IMG/VR virus record: IMGVR_UViG_3300045988_073134
From: a virus
Strand: one strand, 5' to 3'
Length of the DNA: 64,000 bases
In this document: positions 24,367-64,000 of the stretch, piece after piece
Position numbering within the stretch: the stretch's first letter is position 1
Layout: each line of letters starts with the position of its first letter
Made by a program: the position numbers and the translations under genes
The notes under the pieces: generated by a model
Database searches by the model: none
Told to the model about the DNA's origin: nothing
The model's input: the letters and a program-made list of their open reading frames with translations, nothing else

Positions 24367-25290
24367 TTAATTGTTATTAGATACATTTTCCAATCTTTTA
24401 TATATTATATTCTCTATATACTCATTGTTTATCTCTGTCGCTATATAATTTCTATTATACTTTACACAAGATATTATCTCTGAACCACTACCTGCAAAGG
24501 GTATATAAACTAAATCATTTGGATTACTTGAGGCATTTATTATTCTGTCTGTTACATCTTGTGGTTTCTGTGTTTTATGACCATATCTAACTTTATCAGG
24601 AATAAAATCCCATACATCAGTTACCCCAACAGGAAGATTAAATATATATCTTTCATTTTTATATTGCTCTATAAGAGTATTGTATTCGTTTCTTATGTTG
24701 AATAATTTACAAATCTTTATCCATTGTTTTTCTGTTGGTACTTGAATTCCTTTTAATTTATTATGCACCCATCCAGTAGGTTTACCATTTTTACTCAATT
24801 CTAATTTTGAAATGTCTGATTGTGTTAAATTTAATTCTTTCATTTTTTGTTTCATAATTCTACTAAATGGAGTATCAAAGAACTCATCTTGTTTTACATA
24901 ATAAAGCAAATATTCGCTTGCTGTTGGAAACATTCTTAATTTATCATTTGTTCTGCCGGCTATTGCTCTTAATCCTTTAGATAAGGTTATATTCTGCCTA
25001 AAGTTTAATTGTTTATCAAATATTAATACCTTTTGCTTAGATAATATATCAAAATTACCATAACAATAAAATACCCCTGTTGGTTTTAATACTCTCACAC
25101 ATTCATTAAACCATTGTTGTGTCCAATTAAGATATTCATCCTCAGTCTTCCATTGTTTATCCCACTTCTCGTTTATAGCCTTATAATATGGTGGGTCAGC
25201 TATTATTAGGTCCACACATTCATTTGGTAGAGTTCTCATATATTCCACACAATCACAGTTATATACTTTATTTAATTCCAAAATAATCAT
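24367..25290 (-). CDS. DNA methyltransferase (N6-adenine/N4-cytosine, beta class); no cognate endonuclease is visible
   Basis: Motif IV DLIIADPPYY is N-terminal and motif I IPFAGSGSE is C-terminal. The ATG at 25290 abuts GGGAGG, so TTG 25281 may be the real start. Confidence 0.8.
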   Translation of the reverse strand: MIILELNKVYNCDCVEYMRTLPNECVDLIIADPPYYKAINEKWDKQWKTEDEYLNWTQQWFNECVRVLKPTGVFYCYGNFDILSKQKVLIFDKQLNFRQNITLSKGLRAIAGRTNDKLRMFPTASEYLLYYVKQDEFFDTPFSRIMKQKMKELNLTQSDISKLELSKNGKPTGWVHNKLKGIQVPTEKQWIKICKLFNIRNEYNTLIEQYKNERYIFNLPVGVTDVWDFIPDKVRYGHKTQKPQDVTDRIINASSNPNDLVYIPFAGSGSEIISCVKYNRNYIATEINNEYIENIIYKRLENVSNNN

Positions 25291-27772: not shown

Positions 27773-28276
27773 CTATTGGTTTTTATATTCTTTTTCCACC
27801 AACCATAGTAAACAATAATTAGCTAAGTCCAATATAGTGTCATCTATTTTCTCGTCCTTTACCTTTTGTTCGTTGTTTGGGTTGCACAATGTTAATAGTC
27901 TATTATATTTGTCTGTAATCCTTACTAAGAATGATAAATCACCAAATTTTTTATATGTGTCTGCAACACTATTACCATAGTCATTATTTTTATTTTTATA
28001 AGTTTCCTCTAAGTTGTTTAATATATATTGGTATATATCCAATCTATCCATTTTAGCTTGGTTTATTGTTAGTGCCGGTTCTAACATATCTTTATTCCAT
28101 ACATAAGGGTTATTATAAGTAGCTAAATGGTAATCCCCGTCTTGGTCTATATACTCTATAGTATCAACTAAACCTCTAAATTGCAGCATATCTTCTATAA
28201 CACTACACTCTCCATATTTTTCACCTGCTTGTATACTATCTTTTATTTTAACTAAATCACCTATTTTATATTCCAT
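27773..28276 (-). CDS. Two-domain protein: an N-terminal SH3/KOW-like module and a C-terminal all-alpha MazG/DUF1599-like nucleotide-associated domain
   Basis: The C-terminal half KNKNNDYGNSVADTYKKFGDLSFLVRITDKYNRLLTL...DDTILDLANYCLLWL matches, from memory, the K-x-DYG...R-x-x-DK-x-x-R pattern of DUF1599/MazG-like proteins. Confidence 0.4.
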   Translation of the reverse strand: MEYKIGDLVKIKDSIQAGEKYGECSVIEDMLQFRGLVDTIEYIDQDGDYHLATYNNPYVWNKDMLEPALTINQAKMDRLDIYQYILNNLEETYKNKNNDYGNSVADTYKKFGDLSFLVRITDKYNRLLTLCNPNNEQKVKDEKIDDTILDLANYCLLWLVEKEYKNQ

Positions 28277-29251: not shown

Positions 29252-29452
29252 TTACTCCACCTCACCTTTACTTAATATATATTGCATATATGCCAACCTA
29301 CAGTCCGCCGTGTCGTATTGTGCTAGGGGGCAATCTTTGCAGCCCCTAGTTTTACCATCATACATACTATCACAAAATAATTTAACTCTGTCTGTCAAGT
29401 CTGCCACTAATTCTCTATCACTTTTACTTTTTCTTCGGCTCATACATTCCAC
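29252..29452 (-). CDS. Cys-containing small protein
   Basis: 66 aa. FCDS...GCKDCPLAQYDTADC. It overlaps the thyX 3-prime end; ATG 29443 is an alternative start. Confidence 0.45.
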   Translation of the reverse strand: MECMSRRKSKSDRELVADLTDRVKLFCDSMYDGKTRGCKDCPLAQYDTADCRLAYMQYILSKGEVE

Positions 29453-30116
29453 ACCCTTTCATCTCTGGACAATAACCTAACTTCTTACATTGTGGTACTA
29501 ATAACTCTTTGTATCTCGGCTCAACTGCCACTACTTCTTTTACCATTTCTTGTACTAAATAATGTATTGGTAATTCAGCTCTATTACATAATCTTACATT
29601 AGCTAAATGTATAAGACCTTCAATGTTTACTGCAAAACTACAAGCACTTGCTATTCCTATTGGTACAAAAGTTCTTGCTATCTCGTTTGCACGTTCTTTA
29701 TCAACTCCTGCCTGCTTCATCTTTTCAATTGTTAATTGATAACAAGTGGCTGCATATTCTTCAGTTAAAAAATGGTCTCTAACTAGTAGAGGGTTTTTTC
29801 TTATCTCAGGAGCTGCGTATACATCCATTCTATCTTTTGTAACATATCTTAAAGATTGAACATTTTTAACTACTCCTACCTCATGTCTTACTAGTTGGTC
29901 AATTGTAAAACGTGGAACTCTTTGTAAGTCAAATACAAAATATAGATGTCTGCTACCGCTTAAATGTCCACTCTTAAGACAATGTAGTCCTACTTTTTCC
30001 GCCTGCTCTTTTGGTGTGTCATAACATACACAAGCAAATTCTCCATGTTTCTTGATAAATTGTGTTACCTCATCTTTATTAACTAAAGTTACTTGAAAAT
30101 TATTTTCTCCAAACAT
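29424..30116 (-). CDS. thyX: Flavin-dependent thymidylate synthase
   Basis: 230 aa with the ThyX signature region LVRHEVGVVKNVQSLRY (the RH....S......S.RY pattern). Confidence 0.75.
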   Translation of the reverse strand: MFGENNFQVTLVNKDEVTQFIKKHGEFACVCYDTPKEQAEKVGLHCLKSGHLSGSRHLYFVFDLQRVPRFTIDQLVRHEVGVVKNVQSLRYVTKDRMDVYAAPEIRKNPLLVRDHFLTEEYAATCYQLTIEKMKQAGVDKERANEIARTFVPIGIASACSFAVNIEGLIHLANVRLCNRAELPIHYLVQEMVKEVVAVEPRYKELLVPQCKKLGYCPEMKGCGMYEPKKK

Positions 30117-32855: not shown

Positions 32856-33856
32856 AAAATAATCAACTCGCTTTCAATCAAATTTTTAGGATTCTGCTCA
32901 TATTTTATCTTGTCTAATAAGTTATTTACTCCGTCTAATATATCTACTAAGTCATATTTTGAAGTATTAGTTGCTATGTGGATACACTGTCTCATTATGT
33001 CAGTTGGTATCATTGTTAGTTCTTTATTTCTTGTTATGTTCAGCTTACATAGGTCTAGTACAAACTTATTTAAATCTTTTACAAATAGTTTTAAGTCCTT
33101 GCCGTCTCTGTATATACTGTCTATTATTTGTATTGGCTCATCTGCTTGTTTATTTATAATACCTTGTACTATCTTTAATAGATGTTCATAGTTAGTAATA
33201 CCTAGACAATCTAATACAGCTTGTAATGTAATATCAGTTGTGTAACCAAGTACTGTATCTAGTTTCATTATGGCATCTCTCATTCCACCGTCGGCCAACT
33301 TAGCTATATACTCCAATGCCTCTATGTCATAAGTTATTTTTCCCTCTTGTTGTAATATATATTTCAATCTTTGTACTATCTCAAACTGAGGAATACGTTT
33401 AAAGTCAAATCTTTGTAGTCTGCTCAATATAGTTGCAGGTATTTTATGAGGGTCAGTAGTACATAGTATGAATATAACTCCTTTTGGTGGTTCTTCTAAT
33501 ACCTTTAATAGTGCATTAAATGCACCAATGCTTAACATGTGCACCTCGTCTATTATATATACCTTGTATTTACTATCCAGGCTCTTCATTCTACAGTCGT
33601 CAATTATACTACGTATATTATCAACCCCGTTGTTACTGGCACCGTCTATTTCAATTGGTTTTCCTTTACCACCATTTACATCACTTGCAAATATTCTTGC
33701 ACTCGTAGTTTTCCCAGTACCACTTGAGCCACAAAATAGATAAGCCTGTTTTATCTCACCAGTTTGTAATTGATTACTTAATACCTTTTTCACATTATCT
33801 TGACACACTACATCCTCAAAATGTTGTGGTCTATATTTAACAGCTAAATTCATCAT
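32843..33856 (-). CDS. dnaX: Clamp-loader ATPase, DnaX (gamma/tau-like)
   Basis: KYRPQHFEDVV, GSSGTGKTT, IIDEVHMLS, FNALLKVLEEPP and ILSRLQRF motifs. The start was set at ATG 33856 (AGGGAGGATATATTAT upstream). Confidence 0.85.
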   Translation of the reverse strand: MMNLAVKYRPQHFEDVVCQDNVKKVLSNQLQTGEIKQAYLFCGSSGTGKTTSARIFASDVNGGKGKPIEIDGASNNGVDNIRSIIDDCRMKSLDSKYKVYIIDEVHMLSIGAFNALLKVLEEPPKGVIFILCTTDPHKIPATILSRLQRFDFKRIPQFEIVQRLKYILQQEGKITYDIEALEYIAKLADGGMRDAIMKLDTVLGYTTDITLQAVLDCLGITNYEHLLKIVQGIINKQADEPIQIIDSIYRDGKDLKLFVKDLNKFVLDLCKLNITRNKELTMIPTDIMRQCIHIATNTSKYDLVDILDGVNNLLDKIKYEQNPKNLIESELIILCLK

Positions 33857-34355
33857 ATAATATATCCTCCCTTTGTATATGTTTATAAGTTTCATAATAA
33901 TAACAACTTATTATAGTACTTTCCTTTATTTCTGGAAATAAATTACATACTTCAAATCTACTTAATCCAGCTAACCTAAGGCGTCTAATTAAAATAACCT
34001 GGTCATCTGTTAATTTACAATTACCACTTTTACCTCGTTGATACCCATGTTTATATGAATGCTGTGTATTATGGGCTATTGTACACCATTCCAAATTACT
34101 TACAGTATTATCCAATTTATTACCATTTATATGATTAACACAAGGATAATTATTGGCATTGGGTAAAAACGCTTCGGCTACTAATCTATGTACTCTTTTA
34201 TAATAACGTTTATAGTTAACACATAAACATATTTCCTCATAACCACTAGACCCTATAACAGTACTCATTATTTTATTATACTTATTTTTTATACGTCCTT
34301 TATTACTTACATAATAAATCCGTCCTTGTATATTAAAAGGTCTCCACTCCTCCAT
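33837..34355 (-). CDS. HNH homing endonuclease (NUMOD4/HNH_3-like), free-standing
   Basis: EEWRPF...YYVSNKGRI, VHRLVAEAFLPN and VNHINGNKLDNTVSNLEWCTIAHNTQH motifs. It is a paralogue of 37069-37662. Confidence 0.8.
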   Translation of the reverse strand: MEEWRPFNIQGRIYYVSNKGRIKNKYNKIMSTVIGSSGYEEICLCVNYKRYYKRVHRLVAEAFLPNANNYPCVNHINGNKLDNTVSNLEWCTIAHNTQHSYKHGYQRGKSGNCKLTDDQVILIRRLRLAGLSRFEVCNLFPEIKESTIISCYYYETYKHIQREDILYDEFSC

Positions 34356-34699: not shown

Positions 34700-34736
34700 C
34701 TATATATAGTATAGGAGGTATCTCTTATTCGCTAAC
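34700..34736 (-). promoter_or_regulatory. Phage promoter motif, copy 5 (weaker -35 GTTAGCGAA)
   Basis: ctatatatagtataggaggtatctcttattcgctaac. The -10 part lies inside palindrome 34696-34718, which includes the downstream RBS. Confidence 0.45.
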
Positions 34737-35351
34737 TTGGTCTTTAACTTTTTTAAAAAAATCTTTTACTACTCTTGATACATAAGCAGGTGATACACTG
34801 TACTGATATGCTATGTATGTACCTTTTATGCCACACAGATAATCTGCTATTATAGCACGTTGTTTGTCATTCTTCACGTTCTTTAATTCTTCTCTAATAA
34901 TTTCTTTTAACTCACGTACTAATGCACTAAGCTCTACATCTTCTTTACTTTCCAAATAATTCTCTAATGATGTGTATCTAATATGACCATGATGTTTGAG
35001 TTGTATATATCCATCTATGGATAATATCTTATATATATTTTGTTCACCATCTGTAGTATATCTATTATGTTTGTCTATTCTATTTCTGTACTGTCTTAAT
35101 TCTCTTTTTATTGAGGGATATGCAAAAGTTGTGAATAGTGTACCATATGAAGGGTCATAATGGTCTACACACTTCATTATACACTGCCATGCGACCTGGT
35201 ACAGCTCATCTCTATCATTGTATAATTTATATGGTTTTAATAGGGAATATACCATATTGTCTATGTACTGTGGTAATTCGTTTATCGCCTCTTTATCTCC
35301 GTTTTTATATCTCATAACAATTTCCTGGCACTTATTTCCATTATTACTCAT
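34725..35351 (-). CDS. Sigma-70 family sigma factor (phage-encoded, second copy)
   Basis: Region 2-like DELYQVAWQCIMKCVDHYDPSYGTLFTTFAYPSIKRELRQY and region 4 HTH YIAYQYSVSPAYVSRVVKDF. Confidence 0.7.
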   Translation of the reverse strand: MSNNGNKCQEIVMRYKNGDKEAINELPQYIDNMVYSLLKPYKLYNDRDELYQVAWQCIMKCVDHYDPSYGTLFTTFAYPSIKRELRQYRNRIDKHNRYTTDGEQNIYKILSIDGYIQLKHHGHIRYTSLENYLESKEDVELSALVRELKEIIREELKNVKNDKQRAIIADYLCGIKGTYIAYQYSVSPAYVSRVVKDFFKKVKDQVSE

Positions 35352-36511: not shown

Positions 36512-36988
36512 TTAATACATCTCCTTATTAGTTTCTTGGTATTCTTTGTATAGTTCTCTTACTTTGTCTCTAGATTTAGGGTCATGCTCCACGGGAACCA
36601 CTTCTCTATTCTTACAATCTCCTTTTATAAAATCATATATAAAATCATCTCTAAAACCTATTTCTTCAGCATCTTTTACATCACCAGCATATATCACTTT
36701 ATCCAAGTTAGCCCATATTATTGCAGCCATACACATTGGACAAGGATACCCAGTTGCATATAGAGTATATCCTGTCAAATCAAAAGTATTTAGTATCTTA
36801 CACGCAGTTCTTATAGCACATATCTCAGCATGAGCAGTTGGGTCATTATTACCTAATACATGATTACTATCTACACAAATTATTTCTCCAGTTTTACTAT
36901 TTACTATAGCAGCTCCAAAGGGACCTCCTATTCCTTTACTCATAGTCATTTTAGCTTGTTTAATTCCTAAATCCATTGGTTTACTCAT
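36512..36988 (-). CDS. CDA-fold deaminase, closest by eye to the guanine deaminase (GuaD) subfamily
   Basis: GIGGPFGAAIV, DPTAHAEICAIRTACK, YPCPMCMAAIIWA and the C-terminal GFRDDFIYDFI. These match my recollection of B. subtilis GuaD (GIGGPFGAVIV, DPTAHAEVTAIRKACK, EPCPMCLGAIYWA, GFDDSFIYKEI). Confidence 0.6.
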   Translation of the reverse strand: MSKPMDLGIKQAKMTMSKGIGGPFGAAIVNSKTGEIICVDSNHVLGNNDPTAHAEICAIRTACKILNTFDLTGYTLYATGYPCPMCMAAIIWANLDKVIYAGDVKDAEEIGFRDDFIYDFIKGDCKNREVVPVEHDPKSRDKVRELYKEYQETNKEMY

Positions 36989-37018
36989 ACTTATCACTCC
37001 TTACAGTTTATTTATCTT

Positions 37019-37068: not shown

Positions 37069-37662
37069 TTATTTACCAGTAGTATATTTAAAAATATATC
37101 CACCTGTAGAGTTCCATACACCATTACATACATCCACAATATACTGTCGTTTAATACCTGTTTGTTTGGAGGTTTCACCTGCATTAATAAACGTTTTAAC
37201 GTATTGTCCTTGTTTGGTATACATCTCTACGGGTTTTAAATCGCGTTCCCAACGTTTTTTACTCATATTTGATAAATGTTCTTTACTACTATAATCTCTG
37301 TTCCCACATTCTAAGGCGTGTATATTATTATGTTGTACCGTACACCATTCTAAATTTTCTACTCGATTATCATCTCTTATACTATTAATATGATTAACTA
37401 CGGGCAGATTATTTGGGTTAGGTATAAAGGTCATTGCAACTAATCTATGCACTTGGTAGTAATAACATTTACCTTCCTTATATAAATTTACTTTTAAATA
37501 ACCATCCTTACTATATGGCAAGTGCATCCAATGTTTTCGTTTAACACCATATATTTTCCCATCTCTTGTTATTTTATATAGACCTTCAAAACCAGGTATA
37601 TCATATAATTGATTATCGATTCGTAGTTCCATAACCGCCTCTATCTGGGTTGCCAAGCTCAT
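37069..37662 (-). CDS. HNH homing endonuclease (NUMOD4/HNH_3-like), free-standing
   Basis: IPGFEGLYKITRDGKIYG, VHRLVAMTFIPNPNNLPVVNHINSIRDDNRVENLEWCTVQHN. It overlaps the dut 3-prime end; ATG 37632 is an alternative start. Confidence 0.8.
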   Translation of the reverse strand: MSLATQIEAVMELRIDNQLYDIPGFEGLYKITRDGKIYGVKRKHWMHLPYSKDGYLKVNLYKEGKCYYYQVHRLVAMTFIPNPNNLPVVNHINSIRDDNRVENLEWCTVQHNNIHALECGNRDYSSKEHLSNMSKKRWERDLKPVEMYTKQGQYVKTFINAGETSKQTGIKRQYIVDVCNGVWNSTGGYIFKYTTGK

Positions 37663-38071
37663 CCACCTCCTCTATGTCTAAAGGAGTACTTTTTTTCACA
37701 CTTATCTGAACTAATCTATCACCTTTTTTAAATGCTCCATATCTAGTACTATAAAACATTGCTAACCATTCATCATTATCTCCACAATACGTATCATCAA
37801 CTAATCCCATGCTATTAGTAAGTAATAGACCAGTATTTTTAAAGGTGCTACTACGTGGTAGTATATACCCCTCGTAGCCTTTTCCCATGTCCATTGCAAA
37901 TCCTAAATTGACTACTATTATATCTCCAGGTGAGAACCTTATTATATTACCTGTAGGTTCCACACCATTCACACTTGCAGTACGTACATAACAGTCATAC
38001 CAATTACCATTTTTACTTTGTGGAGCTTTACCTCCTTCAAATAATCTTACTTTTACTTTTTTATTTGCCAT
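37613..38071 (-). CDS. dut: dUTPase
   Basis: 152 aa. Motifs GYEGYILPRSS, GLVDDTYCGDNDEW and the C-terminal RGGYGTT. Confidence 0.75.
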   Translation of the reverse strand: MANKKVKVRLFEGGKAPQSKNGNWYDCYVRTASVNGVEPTGNIIRFSPGDIIVVNLGFAMDMGKGYEGYILPRSSTFKNTGLLLTNSMGLVDDTYCGDNDEWLAMFYSTRYGAFKKGDRLVQISVKKSTPLDIEEVDELGNPDRGGYGTTNR

Positions 38072-40893: not shown

Positions 40894-40904
40894 AATTTTC
40901 CCTC

Positions 40905-41816
40905 CTAAAATAATCTTTTTTGGTATCTGTTATTACCTTTATATTTATAGTTATCTGCCCAATCTTTAAAGTAATTTATATTGTATAATTGTCTACTCTC
41001 TTGGTTTTCCATACATTGCTCTATTGATGTTCCATATGAAACGCATTGCTCATCTATTTGTCTCTGTACTAACTGTGGTAATTTATTGTAATGACTGACT
41101 TTGTGTTGTACTTTTGGTGATACACATATTCTACCATATTTGGTACATAACTCTCCATTTATTGCAGCCATTAACCACGTTGTACTGTCTGCACTCTCAA
41201 AGGGATAATTTTCTAATATGTCTAAGTTAGTCATCCCAAACGCATGAACTTTTACTTTTGGATTCTTACTTTGTTGTATAATCTTAAAACATTGTTTATA
41301 CCAATCTTCTTTTACTGAGCTGGCCAATCCAACAGTTCCACCAAGTCCTATATATGGAATATGTTTCCCATGAAACGTTGCCTCTAACATATTTTGTAGA
41401 TGTCTAAAGTCTTCTCCAATATGAAATACTGGTAATAATTTGTCTTTGTCTCTTACTTGCTCTCTCATATATAAATAATTGTGCCATGACTTCTCAGGCG
41501 ATTCACGTTGCTCTAATAATGTAGGTTTTCTTTTTAACTCACCTGGAATGTCATCTACACTTGCAAACAAAGTAAATTTGTCTGTATTATCATTTATAAA
41601 CTTTATATAATCTTCTACGTCTATATGTTTATTTTTACTCCAAGCACTGTATGCTCCCGAGTCTATAAATAACTTATTATTGGACATTACTTCTAAAAAC
41701 TTCATTATAACTTTTCTGTCATTTATTTGTGAAAATAGTACATCACATTCTCTTTTTATTATTATGTCATTCTGAGTATTTACTTTACTTCCCGCTAAAT
41801 ATAAGTTAAAACTCAT
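40905..41816 (-). CDS. dpdA: DpdA-like DNA-guanine transglycosylase, paralogue 1
   Basis: 303 aa. The TGT-superfamily-like motifs FIDSGAYSAW and ESADSTTW are present. It is adjacent to folE-queE-queD-queC. The C-terminus is KYKGNNRYQKRLF. Confidence 0.7.
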   Translation of the reverse strand: MSFNLYLAGSKVNTQNDIIIKRECDVLFSQINDRKVIMKFLEVMSNNKLFIDSGAYSAWSKNKHIDVEDYIKFINDNTDKFTLFASVDDIPGELKRKPTLLEQRESPEKSWHNYLYMREQVRDKDKLLPVFHIGEDFRHLQNMLEATFHGKHIPYIGLGGTVGLASSVKEDWYKQCFKIIQQSKNPKVKVHAFGMTNLDILENYPFESADSTTWLMAAINGELCTKYGRICVSPKVQHKVSHYNKLPQLVQRQIDEQCVSYGTSIEQCMENQESRQLYNINYFKDWADNYKYKGNNRYQKRLF

Positions 41817-41828
41817 TCAGCTCACCTC

Positions 41829-42752
41829 CTAAAATAATCTCTTTTGAAACCTATTGTTACCTTTGTATTTATACTTATCTGCCCAGTTTTGTATATAATG
41901 AATATTAACAACAGTTCTCAAGTTAGTATTTTCTACACATTCTTCTAATGTCAAATTACATTCAGCTATTTGTGCTTCCACTTGTTTCTGTACATCTTTT
42001 GGTAATTTTAATATGTGGTTAGGTCTGTGTTGAGCAGAATTAGATAATCCTACAACACCATATTTTGTAAGAATATTTCCATTAATTGCCAACATCATCC
42101 AGGTAGTACTATCAGCACTTGTAAATGGATAATTCTCTAATATATTCAAACTAGTCATTCCAAAAGCATGTGTTTTTATATTTGGGTTATTACTCTCTTT
42201 TATTACTTTAAAACATTGTTTATACCAATTACTCTTTACTGAACTTGGTCTAACTCCAACTGTTCCTCCTAACGCTATATATGGTATATGTTTTCCGTCT
42301 AATATTGTATTACACATATTACTCAGATGTTTAAAATCTTCTCCCATATGAAAAACTGGTAATAATTTGTCGGGTTCTTTAACTCGCTCTCTCATATATA
42401 AATAATTTTCCCACGATAATAATGGAGATTGTTGTTTCTCTTTTAGTGTTGGTGTTCTCGTTAATTCTCCTGGTATATTATCTACACTAGCAAACAATGT
42501 TAACTCATTGGTATTCTCATTTAAATAATTTATATACTCATCTGTATCAATACTTTTACCTCTTGACCAGGCACTATATGCTCCACTATCTACAAATACT
42601 TTTGTACCTGGTTTTTCTTTAGCTTGTTGTAACCATAATTTTCCTCTACTCCTATCACGTAGTTGAGAATATAATCTACAACTTCCTCTTGCCATCATGG
42701 CTTCATCAGCTTCAATATCTCTCACTCCTGCGAAGTATAAATCAAAACTCAT
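41829..42752 (-). CDS. dpdA: DpdA-like DNA-guanine transglycosylase, paralogue 2
   Basis: 307 aa. FVDSGAYSAW and TSADSTTW motifs. Roughly half to two-thirds of residues are identical to paralogue 1 by eye. The two genes are separated by 12 nt. Confidence 0.7.
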   Translation of the reverse strand: MSFDLYFAGVRDIEADEAMMARGSCRLYSQLRDRSRGKLWLQQAKEKPGTKVFVDSGAYSAWSRGKSIDTDEYINYLNENTNELTLFASVDNIPGELTRTPTLKEKQQSPLLSWENYLYMRERVKEPDKLLPVFHMGEDFKHLSNMCNTILDGKHIPYIALGGTVGVRPSSVKSNWYKQCFKVIKESNNPNIKTHAFGMTSLNILENYPFTSADSTTWMMLAINGNILTKYGVVGLSNSAQHRPNHILKLPKDVQKQVEAQIAECNLTLEECVENTNLRTVVNIHYIQNWADKYKYKGNNRFQKRLF

Positions 42753-42773
42753 GTTATCAACTCCTTTTTAATT

Positions 42774-42810
42774 ACATATATAGTATATAAAAAGTGGCCA
42801 GTTTACTAAC
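42774..42810 (-). promoter_or_regulatory. Phage promoter motif, copy 7
   Basis: acatatatagtatataaaaagtggccagtttactaac, 22 nt upstream of dpdA paralogue 2. The -35 lies in a hairpin loop. Confidence 0.7.
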
Positions 42811-42817
42811 TGACCAC
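42787..42817 (-). terminator. Terminator hairpin whose loop carries the -35 element of promoter copy 7
   Basis: GTGGTCAG-TTAGTAAA-CTGGCCAC (one G.U pair on the minus RNA) followed by TTTT. Confidence 0.55.
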
Positions 42818-42825
42818 TTAATTTT

Positions 42826-43395
42826 TTATCTAAATAATTCATATGCTTCTTGTCTTAATTCAATATTAGTTTTAAATCTACCTCTTATAGTTGCAGTTCT
42901 TGTTTTAGCTCCACGAGATTTAATTCCTCTTGCAGTCATACAACTATGTTCACCTTCTACTACTACAATTATATCTTCTGTATCTAATATCATCTGTAGT
43001 ATATCAGCAATATCTTCTCCAATACGTTCTTGTAATTGTAGTCTCTTAGCTACCATGTCTGCCACTCTAGCAATTTTACTAAGTCCTATAACCTTTCCGT
43101 TTGCTATGTATCCAACACTGACAGTCATATTATACATTAATGCCAAGTGGTGTTCACAATAACTAAAAATTGGTATTTTAGATACAGTTACAAGGTCATC
43201 TGCTCCCTCATCATAAAAACATTTATCGAACATCTCAGCTATTTCTTCATTTGTATAGTTCATACCTTCAAATACTTCTTGATACATTTTAGCGACTCTT
43301 TTAGGAGTCTCTTTTAGTCCTGCTCTGTCTGGGTCATCTCCTAACGCCACTAATATATCTCTTACTGCACTTTCAATTTTCTTAGTATCTATCAT
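42826..43395 (-). CDS. folE: GTP cyclohydrolase I
   Basis: Motifs [21 protein letters not shown] and [13 protein letters not shown] 43395 follows AGAGGTG; the track start is a GTG at 43404. Confidence 0.85.
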
Positions 43396-43396
43396 A

Positions 43397-44053
43397 TTAT
43401 ACACCTCTCATATTTGGATTCCATATTATTTTATGCAACTGAACTTGTACTTTTACATTGTTTAATCTATTATCCAGTATATACTCAACTAATTCTTTTG
43501 GTTCTATTTTACCAAATACTGGTGATACATAAGGCTGAGCTTTACATTCGCTCTCCTCTAGTATATATTCCATTTTCTCTAATTCATTGTAATTACTAAC
43601 TACAAATTTAATTACATCTTTAGGTTGAAGTAATTTTAAATTCCACAACTTCATTTTATCTTCCATGCCACTACTTGCACATTTATAATCCATTGTGAAT
43701 ATTACTTTACTATTATACTTGTATTCCCAAAACTTATCTAAATCAACTGCTCCATTAGTTTCTATATTTACTTCAACATCATTAGCTACTAAAGAGTTGA
43801 TTAAATCTTTTACATTCTCATGTATTAATGGTTCTCCTCCAGTTAATGTTACACGAGGAACTCCGTATGTTAATACCTCATCTAATATATCCATTAATGG
43901 CATTTCAGTATATTCACTATTTTCACAACTATAACGAGTATCACAGTAACTACATTTTAAATTACAGCCATACAGTCTTATAAAGACTGTAGGCAACCCA
44001 GTTCTAACTCCTTCTCCATCTATACTAAGAAATATTTCATTTACTTTATACAT
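43397..44053 (-). CDS. queE: 7-carboxy-7-deazaguanine synthase (radical SAM)
   Basis: [36 protein letters not shown] 44053 lies 1 nt after the queD stop. Confidence 0.85.
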
Positions 44054-44054
44054 T

Positions 44055-44429
44055 TTATCTTCCACAATTACATCCCCCTTTAACTTCATATATTGCAGTG
44101 TTATGAGCACTTTCCTCAACGCTTACTCTAGTACATTTTACATATATGCCATCAAACATACCAGTTAATTGGTCAGCTATCCATTTAGCAATATTCTCAG
44201 CAGTTGGATTAACTCCAACAACATCATTTATATACGCATGGTCTAATTGGTTTACAACTCTTTTTATATGAGTAAAATCCATTACCATTCCATACTCAGT
44301 TAATTCTTCACTCTCTATTTGAACTTCTATATTCCAGTTATGACCATGTAGGTTACTACATTTACTTTCATAAGGTAAATCTAATTTATGAGCTCCTGCA
44401 ACTTCCATTTTCTTTATTATTTTATACAT
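44055..44429 (-). CDS. queD: 6-carboxy-5,6,7,8-tetrahydropterin synthase
   Basis: 124 aa. CSNLHGHNW motif and DHAYIND. Confidence 0.8.
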   Translation of the reverse strand: MYKIIKKMEVAGAHKLDLPYESKCSNLHGHNWNIEVQIESEELTEYGMVMDFTHIKRVVNQLDHAYINDVVGVNPTAENIAKWIADQLTGMFDGIYVKCTRVSVEESAHNTAIYEVKGGCNCGR

Positions 44430-44430
44430 A

Positions 44431-45165
44431 TTATTTTTCCTCCCAATCTATTTTTATTTTATATGGTACAGGGTCAACTGCTCCATTTGCCTTAAAGGCA
44501 TTTATTCTATCTATACAAGTACCACAAGTACCACAACAAGGTCTTTCACCTTCATAACAGCTATGAGTTAATTCGTATGGCACTTTTAAATCTAATCCCA
44601 AACGTACAATATCTTTTTTAGTCATATTTACAAAAGGAGCATGAACTCTAACTTTGTCATAAGTACCAATTGATATAGCTTTATCCATAGTCTCAGTAAA
44701 TTCAGGACTACAGTCAGCATAGGCTTCACCGGCTGCATCATCTACATGAGCTCCTAAATATATAGTAGCAATTGTGTCTGGTTTGTCTTCAACTAGACTC
44801 ATCGCTATGGCAGCTACACTACTTAATAATAATCCATTTCTAAATGGTACATAAGTTCTTACCATTCCCTCTCCATCTTTGGCTATTTGGTCTGCATAAC
44901 TCTCATGTCTAATTTCTTCTGTACTATTAGATAATAGAGAACAGTTACTATATGCAAATATTTTACTTAAATCTATTTCTATATGTTTTACATCATAATA
45001 CTCAGCTATATCTTTTGCACATTTCAATTCAATACTGTGCTTTTGTCCATAATACGCACTAACTGTAACAACATTCTCTTTTCCATATAAATCTACTGCT
45101 AATCCCACTGCTGTTGTACTATCTACACCACCACTATTTAATACTACTGCAATTTCTTTACTCAT
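44431..45165 (-). CDS. queC: 7-cyano-7-deazaguanine (preQ0) synthase
   Basis: PP-loop VVLNSGGVDSTT and the C-terminal Zn cluster SCYEGERPCCGTCGTCIDR. Confidence 0.85.
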   Translation of the reverse strand: MSKEIAVVLNSGGVDSTTAVGLAVDLYGKENVVTVSAYYGQKHSIELKCAKDIAEYYDVKHIEIDLSKIFAYSNCSLLSNSTEEIRHESYADQIAKDGEGMVRTYVPFRNGLLLSSVAAIAMSLVEDKPDTIATIYLGAHVDDAAGEAYADCSPEFTETMDKAISIGTYDKVRVHAPFVNMTKKDIVRLGLDLKVPYELTHSCYEGERPCCGTCGTCIDRINAFKANGAVDPVPYKIKIDWEEK

Positions 45166-49234: not shown

Positions 49235-51385
49235 TTAATCACATTTTGTATATCCACATTCAGGACAACTATTACATCCACCAGTGAAGTTTAATTTGGC
49301 TCCACATTCAGGACAATTATTTACTGTCATTTCTTCTCGCTTAAGTTCTCCAGTACTCATCTCAATGTGGTCTTCAATATATCTTTGTTTTAATTCCATT
49401 AATGCTCTTCCTATTGCACTTGGACAACATTTACCAGCACTGGTATCTTTTTTCAACGCAGTTCTAACAGAATAAGATGGACAAGCAGGAACACTATTTA
49501 ATTGGTCGCATATACCTTCTACTGTTCCACCTAATTTACCTGCATAACTTATCATTCTACTAAGTCCTATCATGAAACTATTACATCCACCTTGACTACC
49601 CTTATCTAAGAAGATATGACATAGCTGACCTGTTTTCTTATGGAAGTATACTGACATCCATAAACTACCACATCCAGTTGTTAGTTGAGTACCATATGCT
49701 ACACAGTTATCAATAGATGTGTCAGTTATTGGTATGTGTATAGTATTCTCTGTTGTTTGTTCTTTTGGTTTATCTACTACTAATACACCTTCCTTTTTAC
49801 AACCGGCTCTATAAATTGTTAACCCTTTACAACCTTCTTCCCATGCAGCTTGGTATAAATCTCTTATAGTTTCAACAGTTGTATCATTAGTAACGTTAAC
49901 AGTACTGCTTATACTAGCATCAATAAATCTTTGCCATTGTGCTTGTATTGTAACTCTGTCAAACGGGTCTATATTTTGAGCAGTGGCTATAGTACTTACA
50001 TTTTCCTCAGATATTACTCCTGTATCAATCATCTTTTGTATTATTGGAGTATATACATTATAATATATATCTTCTCCATGTAGGGATTGAGTTTTTCTTG
50101 TATAATGTGTAGCAAATATTGGTTCTACTCCACCACTAACTCCTAACATTGTACTTATGCTTCCAGTTGGCGCTATTGTGAATAATTGAGAATTTCTAAG
50201 GCCATAACGTTTTATCAAATCAATTGTATTATCTTCAATAACATTACTATTTCTTAATACGGTTATAAAAGTACTTGCTAGTATTAAACGTAGGTCACAT
50301 TCAGGGAAGGATTCAGTATCCATAGCTAGTAGAGCACTTTCCTCTAATCCTGTATTAACTAAAGTTTTACCTATTATCTCAATTATATCAAGTGCTCTTG
50401 ATGAGTCATATTGACATCTCATCTTTAGTAACATATCAGCAAACCCCATAATACCAAGTCCTATTTGTCTCCAATCACGTACGCTGTTTCTTTGTTCTTC
50501 TAATGGATGTAATTCTAGTCCTTCATCTAACACATCATTTAAGGCACGTATCGCTATTCTTACTGCACTTTTGAACTCAGGTATATTAAAGGCAGCTTTA
50601 TCTGTAAATGGGTTTTCTACAAATTCACTTAAGTTTAATGCTCCTAATAGACAACTACCACCTGCCGGTAATGGTTCCTCAGCACAAGGATTTACTCCTG
50701 CATATTCAAAATATGCAAATTCATCTAATAAGTTATAACGTTTTATTGTGTCCCAGTACAGTATGCCAGGCTCTGCCCAGTCATAATTATTTAATGCGAT
50801 ATGGTCTAATATATCAGGTTTATTTTCCATATCATCATCACTCATACGTACTGAGATATTACATTTTTCTAATTTGTTATCTAGTTTAGCATCTATAAAG
50901 TCATGTATATCAGGATGACTACTGTCCATACTTATCATCAAGGCTCCACGTCTCCCATTCTGACCAATAACTCTCGCAGTTTGTTCCAAGACATCCATAA
51001 ATGAGACTGCACCACTAGTTGTAAGAGCTGCATTATGTACCTCTGCTCCTTTTGGTCTTAATGTACTAATATCAACACCACATCCACCACCATAGCTAAA
51101 TGTACGGGCTAACTTCATTGCAGCCTCATATATACCCTCGATACTATCATGTGGAGGTTCTATTACATAACAATTACTGTAAGTTACACCTCTGTCTGTA
51201 ATACCTCTATTACTAAGTATTCTACCACCAAATAAAAATTTCTTATCCACTATCAGTTGAGCAACTTGTGTATCTCCACCACTAACTCTCTCTAGCCAGT
51301 CTTCAAAACTTTCACCATTGCGTTGATATTTTTTCTTCCAAATATCTTCTCCTAACTCACTTAATTTCCAATCTTGTAGTTCCAT
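49235..51385 (-). CDS. nrdJ: Class II (adenosylcobalamin-dependent) ribonucleotide reductase with a C-terminal zinc ribbon
   Basis: 716 aa. Active-site region GVNPCAEEPLPAGGSCLLGALNLSEF. C-terminal CPECGAKLNFTGGCNSCPECGY. No NrdB/NrdF or NrdG partner is present. Confidence 0.8.
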   Translation of the reverse strand: MELQDWKLSELGEDIWKKKYQRNGESFEDWLERVSGGDTQVAQLIVDKKFLFGGRILSNRGITDRGVTYSNCYVIEPPHDSIEGIYEAAMKLARTFSYGGGCGVDISTLRPKGAEVHNAALTTSGAVSFMDVLEQTARVIGQNGRRGALMISMDSSHPDIHDFIDAKLDNKLEKCNISVRMSDDDMENKPDILDHIALNNYDWAEPGILYWDTIKRYNLLDEFAYFEYAGVNPCAEEPLPAGGSCLLGALNLSEFVENPFTDKAAFNIPEFKSAVRIAIRALNDVLDEGLELHPLEEQRNSVRDWRQIGLGIMGFADMLLKMRCQYDSSRALDIIEIIGKTLVNTGLEESALLAMDTESFPECDLRLILASTFITVLRNSNVIEDNTIDLIKRYGLRNSQLFTIAPTGSISTMLGVSGGVEPIFATHYTRKTQSLHGEDIYYNVYTPIIQKMIDTGVISEENVSTIATAQNIDPFDRVTIQAQWQRFIDASISSTVNVTNDTTVETIRDLYQAAWEEGCKGLTIYRAGCKKEGVLVVDKPKEQTTENTIHIPITDTSIDNCVAYGTQLTTGCGSLWMSVYFHKKTGQLCHIFLDKGSQGGCNSFMIGLSRMISYAGKLGGTVEGICDQLNSVPACPSYSVRTALKKDTSAGKCCPSAIGRALMELKQRYIEDHIEMSTGELKREEMTVNNCPECGAKLNFTGGCNSCPECGYTKCD

Positions 51386-51439: not shown

Positions 51440-51454
51440 TCGGTTTTTACTAAC
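51418..51454 (-). promoter_or_regulatory. Phage promoter motif, copy 10
   Basis: ctatatatagtatagtaagacttcggtttttactaac, 33 nt upstream of nrdJ. The -10 lies inside the 12-bp-stem palindrome 51411-51439. Confidence 0.6.
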
Positions 51455-52052
51455 TTAATAAATAATTTAATTTCTTTTGAAGTGCACGTCTAATTCCAAC
51501 AACACCTGCAGTACTAACTCCAATTTCCCTTGCCATGTGAGATTGTTGTAAGTCACACATATGGTCAAGTGCTACCATACAATATTGTAATTGTTTTTCA
51601 GATAAATCTTCCTTATGTACTAAGTCAGATAATTCAACTTTGTCATATTCATCTTCAACACTTGCTTCCTCCCATCTATCTTCAGTTGTCTCATAACAAC
51701 TCATTGGAGTACATTGGTCGCCGTTGTTCGCTTTACGTTTATTACTTGCATTACTTTGTGTTAGAGTTCTAAGAGCATTCTTGATATAAACACATATCAT
51801 AGAAGTTAATTTACCACTAGTACTCTTTTCAGCATCAAAGTTTTCAAAACATTTCCATATTTGTTCTAATATTACACTTGTAACTTCATCATCACTTACA
51901 CCAACGTATTTTTTACTTACTTGATAAAATAGACTCTTATTTGTCTCAAATACATATGCAATAACTTCATCATGAAAACCTGCTTGGTAATCTCTAACTA
52001 ATTCCTCATCAGTGTGTTTTAAACCATAAACTTTAACTACATCTTTAAACAT
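51450..52052 (-). CDS. Sigma-70 family sigma factor (phage-encoded), expressed from a sigma-A-type promoter
   Basis: 200 aa. Region 2-like VTSVILEQIWKCFENFD...SMICVYIKNALR and region 4 HTH QQSHMAREIGVSTAGVVGIRRALQKK. Confidence 0.6.
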   Translation of the reverse strand: MFKDVVKVYGLKHTDEELVRDYQAGFHDEVIAYVFETNKSLFYQVSKKYVGVSDDEVTSVILEQIWKCFENFDAEKSTSGKLTSMICVYIKNALRTLTQSNASNKRKANNGDQCTPMSCYETTEDRWEEASVEDEYDKVELSDLVHKEDLSEKQLQYCMVALDHMCDLQQSHMAREIGVSTAGVVGIRRALQKKLNYLLS

Positions 52053-60176: not shown

Positions 60177-60968
60177 CTATGCCACCTCCTTAAAGTTATT
60201 AAATCTTGTTGTTAGGTAATCACCTATACAAGTATTATCTAAGTTTGTTCTTTTTAATAATCGGTTTAAATTTTTAAGTGTTACTGTGTATGGTCTACAA
60301 CATAAATCTATTTTTTCTTCTTGTTTGGCACTGTCTAATAATTGATACATTAATATTATCCAAGATTCCATTTTATCGAACTCAGTTGTTCCACCATGTT
60401 GTCTTATTTCTATTGTGCCATATTTTACATAACTTTGTAAATTTACCTTGCGATATCTTGTATTTAGTAGATATGATATATCACTTATACTTGTAACCCA
60501 GTCTTGATTAATCTTTACTAAATCATCTTTTTTAAGAGGTTTACAATACTCATTTCTACGTCTACTAGGTGGTACTAAGTAATTTATAATTCCTTGATAA
60601 TTATAGTATAAGTTTAAAAAGTTCTTACAATTTTGTACTGTAAAATCAGCTATATCAAAATGTACATGAGTACCACAAGTTTTATCCACTTTCGCTCCAC
60701 AACTATTTAATACTTCATATACTTTTTGAAGTTCGTCTAAACCTTCATCTCCGTATAGTATTGGACTTACAAGTTCTAATCCTCTATATAATCCAGTATC
60801 TCGTGAAGTAACACTTGCATCTGTTGTAAGTTTCCATTGAGGTATAACTTTATGAGTATATCCACTAAAATCTGCTACTGATATACCTGCTGCTCTAAGT
60901 TTTTCTATAACTGTTACATAGTTTGCACCAAAGAACTCAATTTCAACACCAAATTTTAAATCTCTCAT
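60177..60968 (-). CDS. Amidoligase (Amidoligase_2 / glutamine-synthetase-fold family)
   Basis: KFGVEIEFFG, WKLTTDASV, GLELVSPIL and CGTHVHFD. This is the canonical order of amidoligase motifs. ATG 60968 lies 9 nt after AGAGGAG. Confidence 0.75.
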   Translation of the reverse strand: MRDLKFGVEIEFFGANYVTVIEKLRAAGISVADFSGYTHKVIPQWKLTTDASVTSRDTGLYRGLELVSPILYGDEGLDELQKVYEVLNSCGAKVDKTCGTHVHFDIADFTVQNCKNFLNLYYNYQGIINYLVPPSRRRNEYCKPLKKDDLVKINQDWVTSISDISYLLNTRYRKVNLQSYVKYGTIEIRQHGGTTEFDKMESWIILMYQLLDSAKQEEKIDLCCRPYTVTLKNLNRLLKRTNLDNTCIGDYLTTRFNNFKEVA

Positions 60969-61003
60969 TATTAACAACTCCTCTTTTATCTTTTATTAAG
61001 ATA

Positions 61004-62120: not shown

Positions 62121-64000
62121 TTAGTTTGATATATTTAATACTGAAATAAACTTATCGCGCATAGTTTCAGTATTAAATTTATTTAGTGTAAATCTTCTTA
62201 CATATACACAAGTAGAAGAACTGCCTGTACTAGATATATAATAATAATCTCCGTATTTAACAATAGAAGGATAAACATAACTAACTAAATTACCTTGTAA
62301 TATTATTCTACTATCACTCAAATAGTTTTTATCAATTTTTAAAAATTCTATAGTTAACCTTTTATTCATACTATGTGCTAAATATATATTATTAGAAGCG
62401 TCTTTAAACCAACACGCCCTTGAACCTGCATCAGGTATTATTATTTCGTCAACTCTATTTTTAGTTGCTATATCAAATTTAGCAATTATTATGTAATTGC
62501 TCCATAAAGCCTTTTTATTTCCGTCTTGTCGCAAAGCATAATATAATTTCCCATTATCACATAAACAAGCCCCTTCAAACTTACAATTACATTCGTTATC
62601 AAAATTAGGTTCTAACCAAAACTCGAATGTATAAAAGTCTTTAGTTCTAAAAATTAAACTATTTTTTATTTTATTTTCAGTACATACACCACAATAATAA
62701 TATTGGTCAGTTTCATTATATGAAATTTGAGCATTCATACTAACCATTGAGTCTAAATTTCCAGTATAAGAACTTGCTATTGTGGATAAATTATTAGTTG
62801 TAAAATCATATGTTGTCCCGTCTTTTGTAAATTTACAAAGTTTGGCATCTTCAAAAGTTTTAGTATCCGTATTAAAAACTCTACTGCACAAATACCAAAT
62901 ATCTTCAAGTTTTACAGAAAATATGCAATATACTTTAGTACCTATTACAACACAGTTAGGGACTCCAGCTCCCAAGTCAATAGTTTTACCTGCTATTAAG
63001 TCATTATGCTTAGCTACATGAAATCTTTCTACAGTTGTAGATGTTGATAGGTTTTTTAAGTCTAATACTGCTAATTCAGTATAAGCATTTACAGAACCTG
63101 GATTATCGGCTAAATCTACATCATTTTGAACATAACATATATAACCTATACCATTCTCATCAACTACTAATGTTGAATCATGTGAAAAATTTCCTTGACC
63201 TATATGATTTCTATAAACAGTGGCTTCATTGTCAAAATTTATACTATTCATAAAACAAGTTAGTATATCCTCAGCATTATTAAAACTATTTAATAACAAG
63301 TGCGCATCTGATACCGGCATATTTGGGTTAGTACCGATATTATCAATTTTTCCATCAACATATTTCTTTGTATTATCAATTTTTTCATCAACGTATTTCT
63401 TTGTATTATCAATTTTTTCATCGACATATCCCTGTGAAGCGTATCCACCAAAGTAAGGTGTATATGTTTTAGTTAACTCACTTGTTTTTGAAAAGTTAAT
63501 TTCTTTACAATTAACAATAACATCGCGCATTTGTAATCTAGCATATTTTGTTCCTTCAGGAGTAGCATATCTCTTTCCTCTTATACGCACTCCATCAATT
63601 ATTTGTTCCTCATCAAACACGTCCATCTGTGAACCACGAATTCCGTCACTTTTACTTATATATTTTTTATTTTCATCATAGAAACACATGAAAACTCTAT
63701 AACCAGTTGTATAATCATTAAAATCATAAACGTTAAAATAATAACTTTCATTGGGTTCAACTTCCATATAATCAGTTGATATAAACCACAACGGATTATC
63801 TGTCTCTACTCCACCTGCTTCTATTGTTTTATTTAGTAAAATGTGTTTACTATTAAATAAATTTGTTGAAGGTTTATTGTTCTTCGCAATATCTTTATAT
63901 TGTGCAGCAACTTCATTTACTGCCCCTTTAATATCTTTAGCAGTTGTATTTAATGTTTCTGTACCTAATTCAGTTTTAATACTATCTATATCTGTTTTCA
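62121..64000 (-). CDS. Tail-fibre-like / receptor-binding protein, N-terminus outside the window. It has a coiled-coil repeat and a large C-terminal (possibly beta-propeller/glycosidase-like) domain.
   Basis: The frame stays open upstream of the track start (a TTG at 63791) to the window edge. The upstream part reads ...KTDIDSIKTELGTETLNTTAKDIKGAVNEVAAQYKDI, a tail-fibre-type motif. There are three YVDxKIDNTKK repeats. Confidence 0.6.
   Translation of the reverse strand, partial: KTDIDSIKTELGTETLNTTAKDIKGAVNEVAAQYKDIAKNNKPSTNLFNSKHILLNKTIEAGGVETDNPLWFISTDYMEVEPNESYYFNVYDFNDYTTGYRVFMCFYDENKKYISKSDGIRGSQMDVFDEEQIIDGVRIRGKRYATPEGTKYARLQMRDVIVNCKEINFSKTSELTKTYTPYFGGYASQGYVDEKIDNTKKYVDEKIDNTKKYVDGKIDNIGTNPNMPVSDAHLLLNSFNNAEDILTCFMNSINFDNEATVYRNHIGQGNFSHDSTLVVDENGIGYICYVQNDVDLADNPGSVNAYTELAVLDLKNLSTSTTVERFHVAKHNDLIAGKTIDLGAGVPNCVVIGTKVYCIFSVKLEDIWYLCSRVFNTDTKTFEDAKLCKFTKDGTTYDFTTNNLSTIASSYTGNLDSMVSMNAQISYNETDQYYYCGVCTENKIKNSLIFRTKDFYTFEFWLEPNFDNECNCKFEGACLCDNGKLYYALRQDGNKKALWSNYIIIAKFDIATKNRVDEIIIPDAGSRACWFKDASNNIYLAHSMNKRLTIEFLKIDKNYLSDSRIILQGNLVSYVYPSIVKYGDYYYISSTGSSSTCVYVRRFTLNKFNTETMRDKFISVLNISN
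63340..63438 (-). repeat. 3 x 33-bp tandem repeat encoding (YVD-E/G-KIDNTKK)3
   Basis: The units are 63340-63372, 63373-63405 and 63406-63438. The first two differ at 2 positions (63352, 63361) over 33 nt; the third diverges at its end. Confidence 0.9.

Follow-up and report, generated by a model that had tools for sequence, protein, structure and literature searches.

Phage DNA-guanine transglycosylases of the DpdA1 type replace guanine post-replicatively, and the resulting modification blocks both restriction enzymes and Cas9 (PMC6884629, PMC7544227, PMC10484667). These enzymes are site-specific: that of phage CAjan modifies GA and GGC (PMC7544227) and that of phage Iggy modifies GA only, its authors expecting a broader range of motifs (PMC10484667). 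In both phages a single DpdA accompanies FolE, QueD, QueE and QueC, without QueF, and dPreQ0, that is, inserted 7-cyano-7-deazaguanine (preQ0), is the product, and in phage Dp-1 a single DpdA (gp7 of the gp1–gp7 cluster) is found together with QueF and a QueT transporter, with dPreQ1 at about 1.7% of G (PMC6884629). The table of Hutinet 2019 gives one DpdA per virus. Here we describe a locus from a 64,000-nucleotide stretch of viral DNA (IMG/VR record IMGVR_UViG_3300045988_073134; the whole stretch is hereafter called the window) in which the genes of a complete preQ0 pathway are followed by two tandem, diverged dpdA genes, dpdA-A and dpdA-B, whose proteins are referred to below as A and B. 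That the locus is a phage preQ0/DpdA DNA-modification module is near certain; it is a known kind of system (phage preQ0/DpdA1) in an unstudied variant, distinguished by a maintained tandem pair and by modular allele diversity at the population level. Our full reading of the pair, as two active preQ0 inserters with different DNA-context preferences, has in our judgement about an even chance of being correct, the activity of both copies being likely and their different target contexts plausible.

Gene dpdA-A (41829..42752, minus strand, 307 aa), which occupies the ancestral slot, and the accessory copy dpdA-B (40905..41816, minus strand, 303 aa) are both predicted to encode DpdA1-type DNA-guanine transglycosylases, and the two proteins are 56% identical across their full length, a value that fits the divergence at a third to a half of positions estimated by eye in the first-pass annotation of this DNA. 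As that annotation had stated, both translations carry the (I/V)DSGAYSAW and SADSTTW motifs and a KYKYKGNNR(F/Y)QKRLF tail, neither has the CxCxxC zinc motif of tRNA-guanine transglycosylases (TGTs), and exactly 12 nt separate the stop codon of A from the ATG of B. Full-length matches to PHROG 887 ('queuine tRNA-ribosyltransferase') were obtained for A (E 5e-55) and B (E 7e-58). By tblastn, the closest characterised relative is the Dp-1 DpdA, 44% identical to A (E 2e-76) and 42% to B (E 2e-71), further close relatives being the DpdA proteins of Bacillus phage Flasso and Streptococcus phage MS1, and the DpdA proteins of CAjan, 9g, Seurat and Iggy show 29–31% identity (E 1e-20 to 1e-27 for CAjan, 9g and Iggy). 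All of these relatives sit in the 'DpdA' (DpdA1) column of the Hutinet 2019 table and not in its DpdA2 column; the nt-1 protein (DpdA2) was seen only as a distant fold match, at rank 16, and no Pfam match to DUF6610 (DpdA4) was found. Gene order points the same way as similarity to Dp-1, since the pair lies directly downstream of folE within a replication module syntenic with those of Dp-1 and Flasso, the order in Dp-1 being, as in the window, queC-queD-queE-folE, dpdA and then dnaN-cas4-recU-dUTPase-recA, with DNA polymerase PolA 47% identical. CAjan and Iggy, in contrast, have another gene order and Proteobacteria as hosts.

The AlphaFold (AF2) models of A and B, with predicted local distance difference test scores (pLDDT) of 91.9 and 91.1, share one topology, and the best 50 Protein Data Bank (PDB) matches listed by Foldseek for each model are all TGTs (top matches E 4e-9 for A and 3e-8 for B, probability 1.0, template modelling score about 0.6), so that both proteins are modelled as TIM barrels with a TGT-like fold. 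PDB searches by sequence only, whether with a single sequence or a profile, reached no TGT or DpdA, and it was only the fold search that succeeded; an hhalign comparison with E. coli Tgt was statistically weak (E 0.055) and served only as a consistency check. Two neighbouring identities were rejected. With no Pfam match for A or B, the TGT model PF01702 included, and no CxCxxC zinc site, neither protein is a tRNA-guanine transglycosylase proper. Nor do they belong to the bacterial DpdA equivalog: its model NF041059, the sole NCBIfam model touched, has a cut-off of 200 bits and scored A and B at only 20.1 and 25.7, the PADLOC DpdA model gave E values of only 3e-4 and 3e-7, and no ParB-like (DpdB) partner was present among the open reading frames (ORFs) scanned by Pfam and PHROG. 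The Dpd system of Salmonella Montevideo (DpdA + DpdB) is similar in using a TGT-fold DNA transglycosylase that inserts preQ0, but its DpdA keeps the Zn site, absent from A and B, and needs the ParB-like ATPase DpdB (PMC10164549). The earlier description of the locus as a 7-deazaguanine module with a duplicated transglycosylase is thus borne out by PHROG 887, the DpdA1 relatives, the fold and the active-site residues, and the profile and fold comparisons proposed with it place both proteins inside the TGT/DpdA superfamily, Foldseek leading to TGTs and PHROG and tblastn to phage DpdA1.

The active site was compared with the CAjan DpdA residues assigned by homology model (PMC7544227). Eight of the nine positions are identical in A and B, namely D63 (general base), S64, D105 (base-binding), H132, G153, G154, F189 and D206 (nucleophile), and the ninth, F67, is replaced by Tyr. 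The three aspartates D63, D105 and D206 correspond to D55, D91 and D214 in A and to D52, D88 and D210 in B, and these columns are invariant in the alignment. Judged by these residues, which they have in common with CAjan and Iggy together with a GG(M/T)VG motif discussed below, A and B both appear to be DpdA1-type DNA transglycosylases with intact catalytic machinery.

Such conservation bears on whether A and B form an obligate heterodimer, comparable to eukaryotic QTRT1/QTRT2 or to dimeric bacterial TGT, in which B would bind DNA or play a regulatory part. The eukaryotic pair resembles this one in providing two paralogous TGT-fold proteins per genome, but its substrate is tRNA and QTRT2 lacks the catalytic nucleophile, whereas both catalytic aspartates are kept in A and in B, and B retains the whole base pocket; that every active-site position is kept in both copies argues against an inactive partner of the QTRT2 kind. 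Neither A nor B has the Zn subdomain, which contributes to the dimer interface of bacterial TGT. The arrangement of the genes is more favourable to a heteromer, as every B found has an A-type gene directly ahead of it and the two genes, spaced 12 nt apart, are co-transcribed, and TGT enzymes are noted to act as dimers (PMC6884629). Single DpdA1 enzymes nevertheless act alone, the phage DpdA tested in E. coli being independent of the host TGT (PMC6884629), and A and B partners reassort freely among phages, so that we regard an obligate heteromer as decidedly unlikely. Among the three functional ideas put forward in the first-pass annotation, two specificities fits best and a heteromer of the QTRT1/QTRT2 type is disfavoured, both catalytic aspartates having been kept.

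The genes supplying the base precede the pair, and like every gene of the window they are carried on the minus strand. Gene queC (44431..45165) encodes a preQ0 synthase of 244 aa without a fused glutamine amidotransferase domain (Pfam QueC E 4e-52; NCBIfam TIGR00364 161 bits, cut-off 150.3), whose translation contains SGGVDS and, at the C-terminus, the CCGTCGTC Cys cluster; queD (44055..44429) encodes a 6-carboxytetrahydropterin synthase of 124 aa with the motif CSNLHGHNW (Pfam PTPS E 3e-31; TIGR03367 95.5 bits, cut-off 89.25). The next gene, queE (43397..44065), encodes a radical S-adenosylmethionine (SAM) 7-carboxy-7-deazaguanine synthase of 222 aa and of the Clostridial type (TIGR03963 275 bits, cut-off 260); its longest ORF extends to 44119, but the start is probably the GTG at 44065, because orthologues are 222 aa long, which gives an 11-nt overlap with queD. 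For folE (42826..43395; GTP cyclohydrolase I, 189 aa, motif CEHH; Pfam GTP_cyclohydroI E 1e-64; NF006826 240 bits, cut-off 162) the ORF reaches a GTG at 43404 (192 aa), and the start was placed at 43395, orthologues being 189 aa long. The preQ0 pathway is thus complete, with FolE, QueD, QueE and QueC each above its NCBIfam equivalog or subfamily cut-off, and the contiguous queC-queD-queE-folE block is confirmed where it had first been placed, all of the motifs quoted for it, including the radical-SAM motif of queE, being found in the translations.

Which 7-deazaguanine is inserted may be predicted from gene content and from the base pocket. With QueF and QueT from Dp-1 and Flasso as queries, tblastn gave no match in the window, and no QueF-, ArcS-, DpdL-, DpdM- or DpdN-like gene appeared in Pfam and PHROG scans of the larger ORFs, which are replication, nucleotide-metabolism and structural genes. 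The window misses about 5 kb of a genome of approximately 71 kb, and this gap was read from a near-identical relative (L193), in which the missing stretch holds collagen-like and immunoglobulin (Ig)-like tail fibres and a holin, and no QueF. After barrel strand 6, both A (residues 160–166) and B (residues 157–163) carry the pocket motif GGTVG, where the equivalent segment reads GGMVG in the preQ0-inserting CAjan enzyme and SPAND in that of the dPreQ1-containing Dp-1; this segment aligns with the TGT substrate loop GLAVGE (a weak hhalign match) and with G206-G207-M208 of the Salmonella DpdA. Among 242 loci collected, none of the 78 copies with GGTVG has QueF in its flanks and 66 have QueC, while in loci where Dp-1-like SPAND enzymes come with their own QueC, QueF is almost always present. 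Among loci L001–L192, other pocket variants (GGRHG, SPRGD, AATTD and SSSKD) often occur where a Vut_1/YhhQ-like transporter is encoded but pathway genes are lacking. As neither QueF, Gat-QueC, ArcS nor a transporter is found, dPreQ0 is the predicted base, and the correlation between pocket motif and gene content leads us to infer that it would be the product of both copies. The prediction of dPreQ0 made at first sight is therefore supported as far as sequence goes, by the lack of QueF and QueT, the unfused QueC and the GGTVG pocket. More generally, the GG(T/M)VG and SPAND signatures may allow preQ0 and preQ1 insertion to be told apart from sequence alone.

The same evidence weighs on the idea that B has moved to a different substrate or chemistry, be it tRNA, another 7-deazaguanine or an ArcS-like remodelling of dPreQ0 in DNA. 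Changes of substrate have been documented in the DpdA family (PMC10516641), a DpdA lies beside a TGT-like ArcS in the Sulfolobus viruses STSV1 and STSV2, and two of the differences in B, N92D and S201N, adjoin active-site motifs. Against this, B shares 56% of its residues with A and has the same GGTVG pocket and both aspartates, its 303 residues contain no PUA or other Pfam domain, and no gene for another base (QueF, Gat-QueC, DpdL/M/N) was found, which makes this the kind of explanation we would least expect to hold. An ArcS-type TGT paralogue, in particular, was rejected as an identity for B, given the absence of a PUA or any other Pfam domain and the fact that A and B do not differ in their transglycosylase active site.

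The source phage belongs to a clade of uncultured phages with genomes of approximately 68–72 kb, found in human-gut metagenomes, with Dp-1, MS1 and Clostridium phage phiCTP1 as distant relatives (PolA 47%). We propose that it is a phage of the lytic type, similar to Dp-1, whose host is a low-GC Firmicute of the gut; a search of GTDB genomes returned distant matches to metagenome-assembled genomes (MAGs) only, and no host for the clade, and the module had no close DNA relative among 50,697 phage records searched by megablast. Within this clade the tandem pair is common and not a one-off. It is present in near relatives of the window, where A and B are each 97–99% identical to their window counterparts, and in four more divergent lineages (L031, L003-5, L190 and L191/192), while other members of the clade (L006/7, L028-30, L032 and L113-117) have a single A-type gene. 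The pair carriers include IMGVR_UViG_3300045988_117821, and the single-copy relatives IMGVR_UViG_3300045988_074257. Across the five lineages B always lies downstream of an A-type gene and never occurs alone, and A-type genes often occur alone in related phages. Outside the clade, one copy was found in all of approximately 130 more distant viral, metagenomic and MAG loci, and none of the INPHARED records detectable with A or B (184 to 201) has two copies.

No paper on any tandem DpdA pair was found in the literature, in agreement with the earlier remark that none was known to have been characterised, yet an independent pair is annotated in RefSeq, in Microbacterium phage Megan (NC_073368), where it surfaced through the fold search. 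There, gp2 and gp3 (L241:670-2543) form an adjacent DpdA pair beside deazaguanine genes; both keep DSGAF and TDSS, their cores are 46% identical and their C-termini are unalignable. A ParB-like gene precedes this pair and Gat-QueC, QueD, QueE and FolE follow it, and because of the Gat-QueC fusion dG+ is predicted there rather than dPreQ0. The Megan pair represents an independent duplication in an isolated, culturable actinophage, about 24% identical to the CAjan DpdA, and the tandem architecture is therefore not unique to the phages described here; in gut viromes it is common.

The split between the two genes is old, in view of 66% nucleotide identity, a longest exact match of 22 nt and a synonymous divergence (dS) of about 1.3. 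Neighbour joining groups the B proteins in a single tight clade with a long stem, whose sister group is the entire A-type radiation, and places the single-copy protein P0063 at the base of the B clade. There are 18 positions at which A-type proteins differ from B-type proteins although conservation within each type is at least 85%; the outgroup matches A at most of these, indicating that it is B that is derived. Neither gene is disrupted in any of the 13 pair-carrying genomes examined, and with pairwise ratios of nonsynonymous to synonymous divergence (dN/dS) of 0.05–0.2 wherever substitutions suffice (0.05–0.17 for B), A and B are both under purifying selection.

The gene ends suggest how the second copy comes and goes. 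A direct repeat is present at 41825..41885 (minus strand), comprising the 3' end of dpdA-A (WADKYKYKGNNRFQKRLF codons), the stop codon and AGGAGG, and again at 40901..40961 (minus strand), comprising the 3' end of dpdA-B, its stop codon and AGGAGG; the two copies match at 53 of 61 nt (87%, against 66% for the whole genes) and bracket a B cassette of 925 nt. The 12-nt spacer between the genes (41817..41828, minus strand) belongs to the same arrangement, as it is here that the stop codon of A and the ribosome-binding site of B (AGGAGG) overlap. L031, which has the pair, and L029, which has a single gene, are separated by a clean indel of 925 nt whose limits are exactly those of the B cassette. 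Three mosaic proteins (P0059, P0060 and P0062) have an A-type N-terminus and a B-type C-terminus; P0060 (L097:6001-6924) and P0062 (L099:1676-2599) are encoded by single genes between folE and dnaN, P0059 being known as a sequence only, and P0060 is a mosaic of four segments, A-B-A-B. These look like tandem pairs collapsed by unequal crossing-over, possibly after gene conversion, and they are unlikely to be assembly artefacts, because exact matches between A and B of the window do not exceed 22 nt. Partners have also been reassorted: B alleles that are only 78% identical occur with one and the same A allele (99% identical) and, conversely, A alleles that are only 72% identical occur with one and the same B allele (92% identical).

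Homing endonuclease genes of the HNH/NUMOD kind dot the replication module (window 37069-37662 and 33837-34355, both minus strand; L097:8762-9274) and the relative L006 (1-428) has an intein in its ribonucleotide reductase; as the positions of the homing genes differ between relatives, these elements mark the module as a recombination-active region.

Repeated loss of B, or its fusion with A, with no obvious harm might suggest that the duplication is simply redundant, with identical insertion sites for A and B and an extra copy that only adds to enzyme dose or is a transient passenger, the more so as one copy suffices in many close relatives and the active-site and pocket residues are the same in A and B. 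Duplicates retained for dose usually remain similar or decay, however, and these copies are 44% diverged, with a dS of 1.26 that is near saturation, and are still under purifying selection in every genome examined; B has its 18 fixed clade-wide differences and has been kept across lineages whose backbone genes have diverged to approximately 65–80% identity. We consider redundancy unlikely, although it has more in its favour than a heteromer or a change of substrate.

Between the window and those phages in which PolA, QueC, QueD, FolE, DnaN and RecA are 86–97% identical to its own, the protein in the A slot is only 66–73% identical, and in the same comparison dS is 1.67 (saturated) for A versus 0.48 for B. 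The excess divergence falls in residues 1–62 and about 230–296, which is also where A and B differ most from each other. In representatives of the alleles the cores are mostly 73–93% identical, the N modules mostly 51–84% and the C modules 30–59%, and the last 15 residues are again 67–100% identical. Within one allele class the C module has a dN near 0 at a dS of 0.09–0.66, and diversifying selection by point mutation was dropped as an explanation, as omega was below 1 in every module when dN/dS was calculated per module. The picture that these values suggest is one of discrete, old and functionally constrained allele classes moved by recombination, not of rapid drift by point mutation.

Discrete old allele classes shuffled among near-identical phages are a pattern also typical of proteins targeted by defences, and the modules might accordingly have diversified to escape a host inhibitor or defence directed at DpdA, with B as a resistant back-up. 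We know of no host factor that targets the DpdA protein, which counts against this. Defences recognising 7-deazaguanine-modified DNA are reported in a preprint (bioRxiv 10.1101/2025.10.29.685425), but what the defences reported so far detect is the modified base, and this would be the same for A and B; evasion of a countermeasure is on balance very improbable.

Identical pockets and catalytic residues, purifying selection on both copies and differences confined to two swappable peripheral modules make two enzymes with different target contexts the best supported model. Under this model FolE, QueD, QueE and QueC would turn GTP into the free base preQ0, and the two co-transcribed DpdA1 enzymes, both catalytically competent and using the same base, would swap guanine for preQ0 in double-stranded phage DNA after replication, through the two-aspartate mechanism of the TGT type with its covalent intermediate; the resulting dPreQ0 would then block host restriction enzymes. 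Recombination at the conserved gene ends would have placed copy B downstream of A, and could equally delete B or fuse it with A. The N-terminal module (1–62) and the C-terminal helical module (230–292) would set the DNA context of the target guanine, and a phage with A and B would be expected to modify more guanine contexts, and so escape more restriction systems, than a phage with one copy. More tentatively, and with a somewhat smaller chance of being right than the model itself, these would be exchangeable target-recognition modules directing A and B to different motifs, the gut-phage allele library, carried singly or in tandem, making up a combinatorial anti-restriction system; with similar reserve, such a library could be seen as analogous to the specificity subunits of restriction-modification systems.

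Several points weigh against this model. The link between the modules and DNA recognition is one that we infer; host enzymes might alter dPreQ0 further. Since Dp-1 modifies only about 1.7% of G (PMC6884629), a high coverage of the genome by modified bases cannot be assumed. The second copy is dispensable, as single-copy relatives and A/B chimeras are viable, and there is no signal of positive selection, so that the diversity could be old neutral divergence combined with recombination.

To our knowledge, DpdA target motifs are known for only two phage enzymes, those of CAjan and Iggy, and no determinant has been mapped. The clade described here amounts to a natural experiment, with related backbones that carry one, two or fused DpdA alleles in which the cores are conserved and two modules differ, and the locus therefore makes the choice of target guanines by DpdA directly accessible to experiment. 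Locating the specificity determinant would allow modified motifs, and hence resistance to restriction enzymes and Cas9, to be predicted for phages of the gut virome, and would also guide the engineering of site-selective 7-deazaguanine insertion.

The junction between the pathway genes and the pair had been described in the first-pass annotation as a terminator/promoter junction, of which the first part stands and the second is not supported. The gap from folE to dpdA-A is 73 nt and contains a hairpin resembling an intrinsic terminator (42792..42819, minus strand), with a 12-bp stem and a 4-nt loop followed by a T-run. Its stem is kept through compensatory changes in 7 related lineages (L031, L029, L003, L006, L035, L097 and L099), which shows it to be a real RNA element, and it would most simply be interpreted as an intrinsic terminator or attenuator. 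A sigma-70 scan detected no promoter in the gap, the 40 nt ahead of dpdA-A included, and promoter-like matches in the region were at chance level (30 found, 29.5 expected). Two sigma-factor-like genes lie elsewhere in the window (34725-35351 and 51450-52052, both minus strand; Sigma70_r2; PHROG 351 'RNA polymerase sigma factor'), and through them the phage may rely on a promoter specificity of its own; this would account for the lack of a visible sigma-70 promoter ahead of the dpdA genes.

Some further genes of the window and its relatives concern DNA modification or nucleotide metabolism. In the L003 lineage of the clade (L003:3431-4123 and L003:4856-5767) a gene for Vut_1, a YhhQ-like queuosine-precursor transporter, lies between polA and queC, and QueD is 303 aa long with an HNH-like segment; the window has neither this segment nor Vut_1. 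An N6/N4 DNA methyltransferase (24367-25290, minus strand; Pfam N6_N4_Mtase E 5e-34) is encoded just upstream of the packaging genes of the window, and the phage probably carries a second, independent DNA modification by way of this enzyme. A DUF1599 protein ('nucleotide modification associated domain 1') and a ThyX thymidylate synthase are encoded near each other (27773-28276 and 29424-30116, both minus strand), and dCMP deaminase (36512-36997), dUTPase (37613-38071) and ribonucleotide reductase (49235-51385) are also present, all of which together suggests extensive remodelling of the nucleotide pool.

Exact-protein look-ups for two ORFs at the window ends returned no match. An Amidoligase_2 gene (60177-60977, minus strand; Pfam E 8e-44, PHROG 2443) adjoins the endolysin and is found clade-wide, with or without B. 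For the ORF of 556 aa at 62121-63791 (minus strand), Pfam and PHROG gave no match and a pattern search of IMG/VR gave no relative. Its place between holin and endolysin is taken in a close relative by an ORF of 589 aa, and the gene appears to be highly variable.

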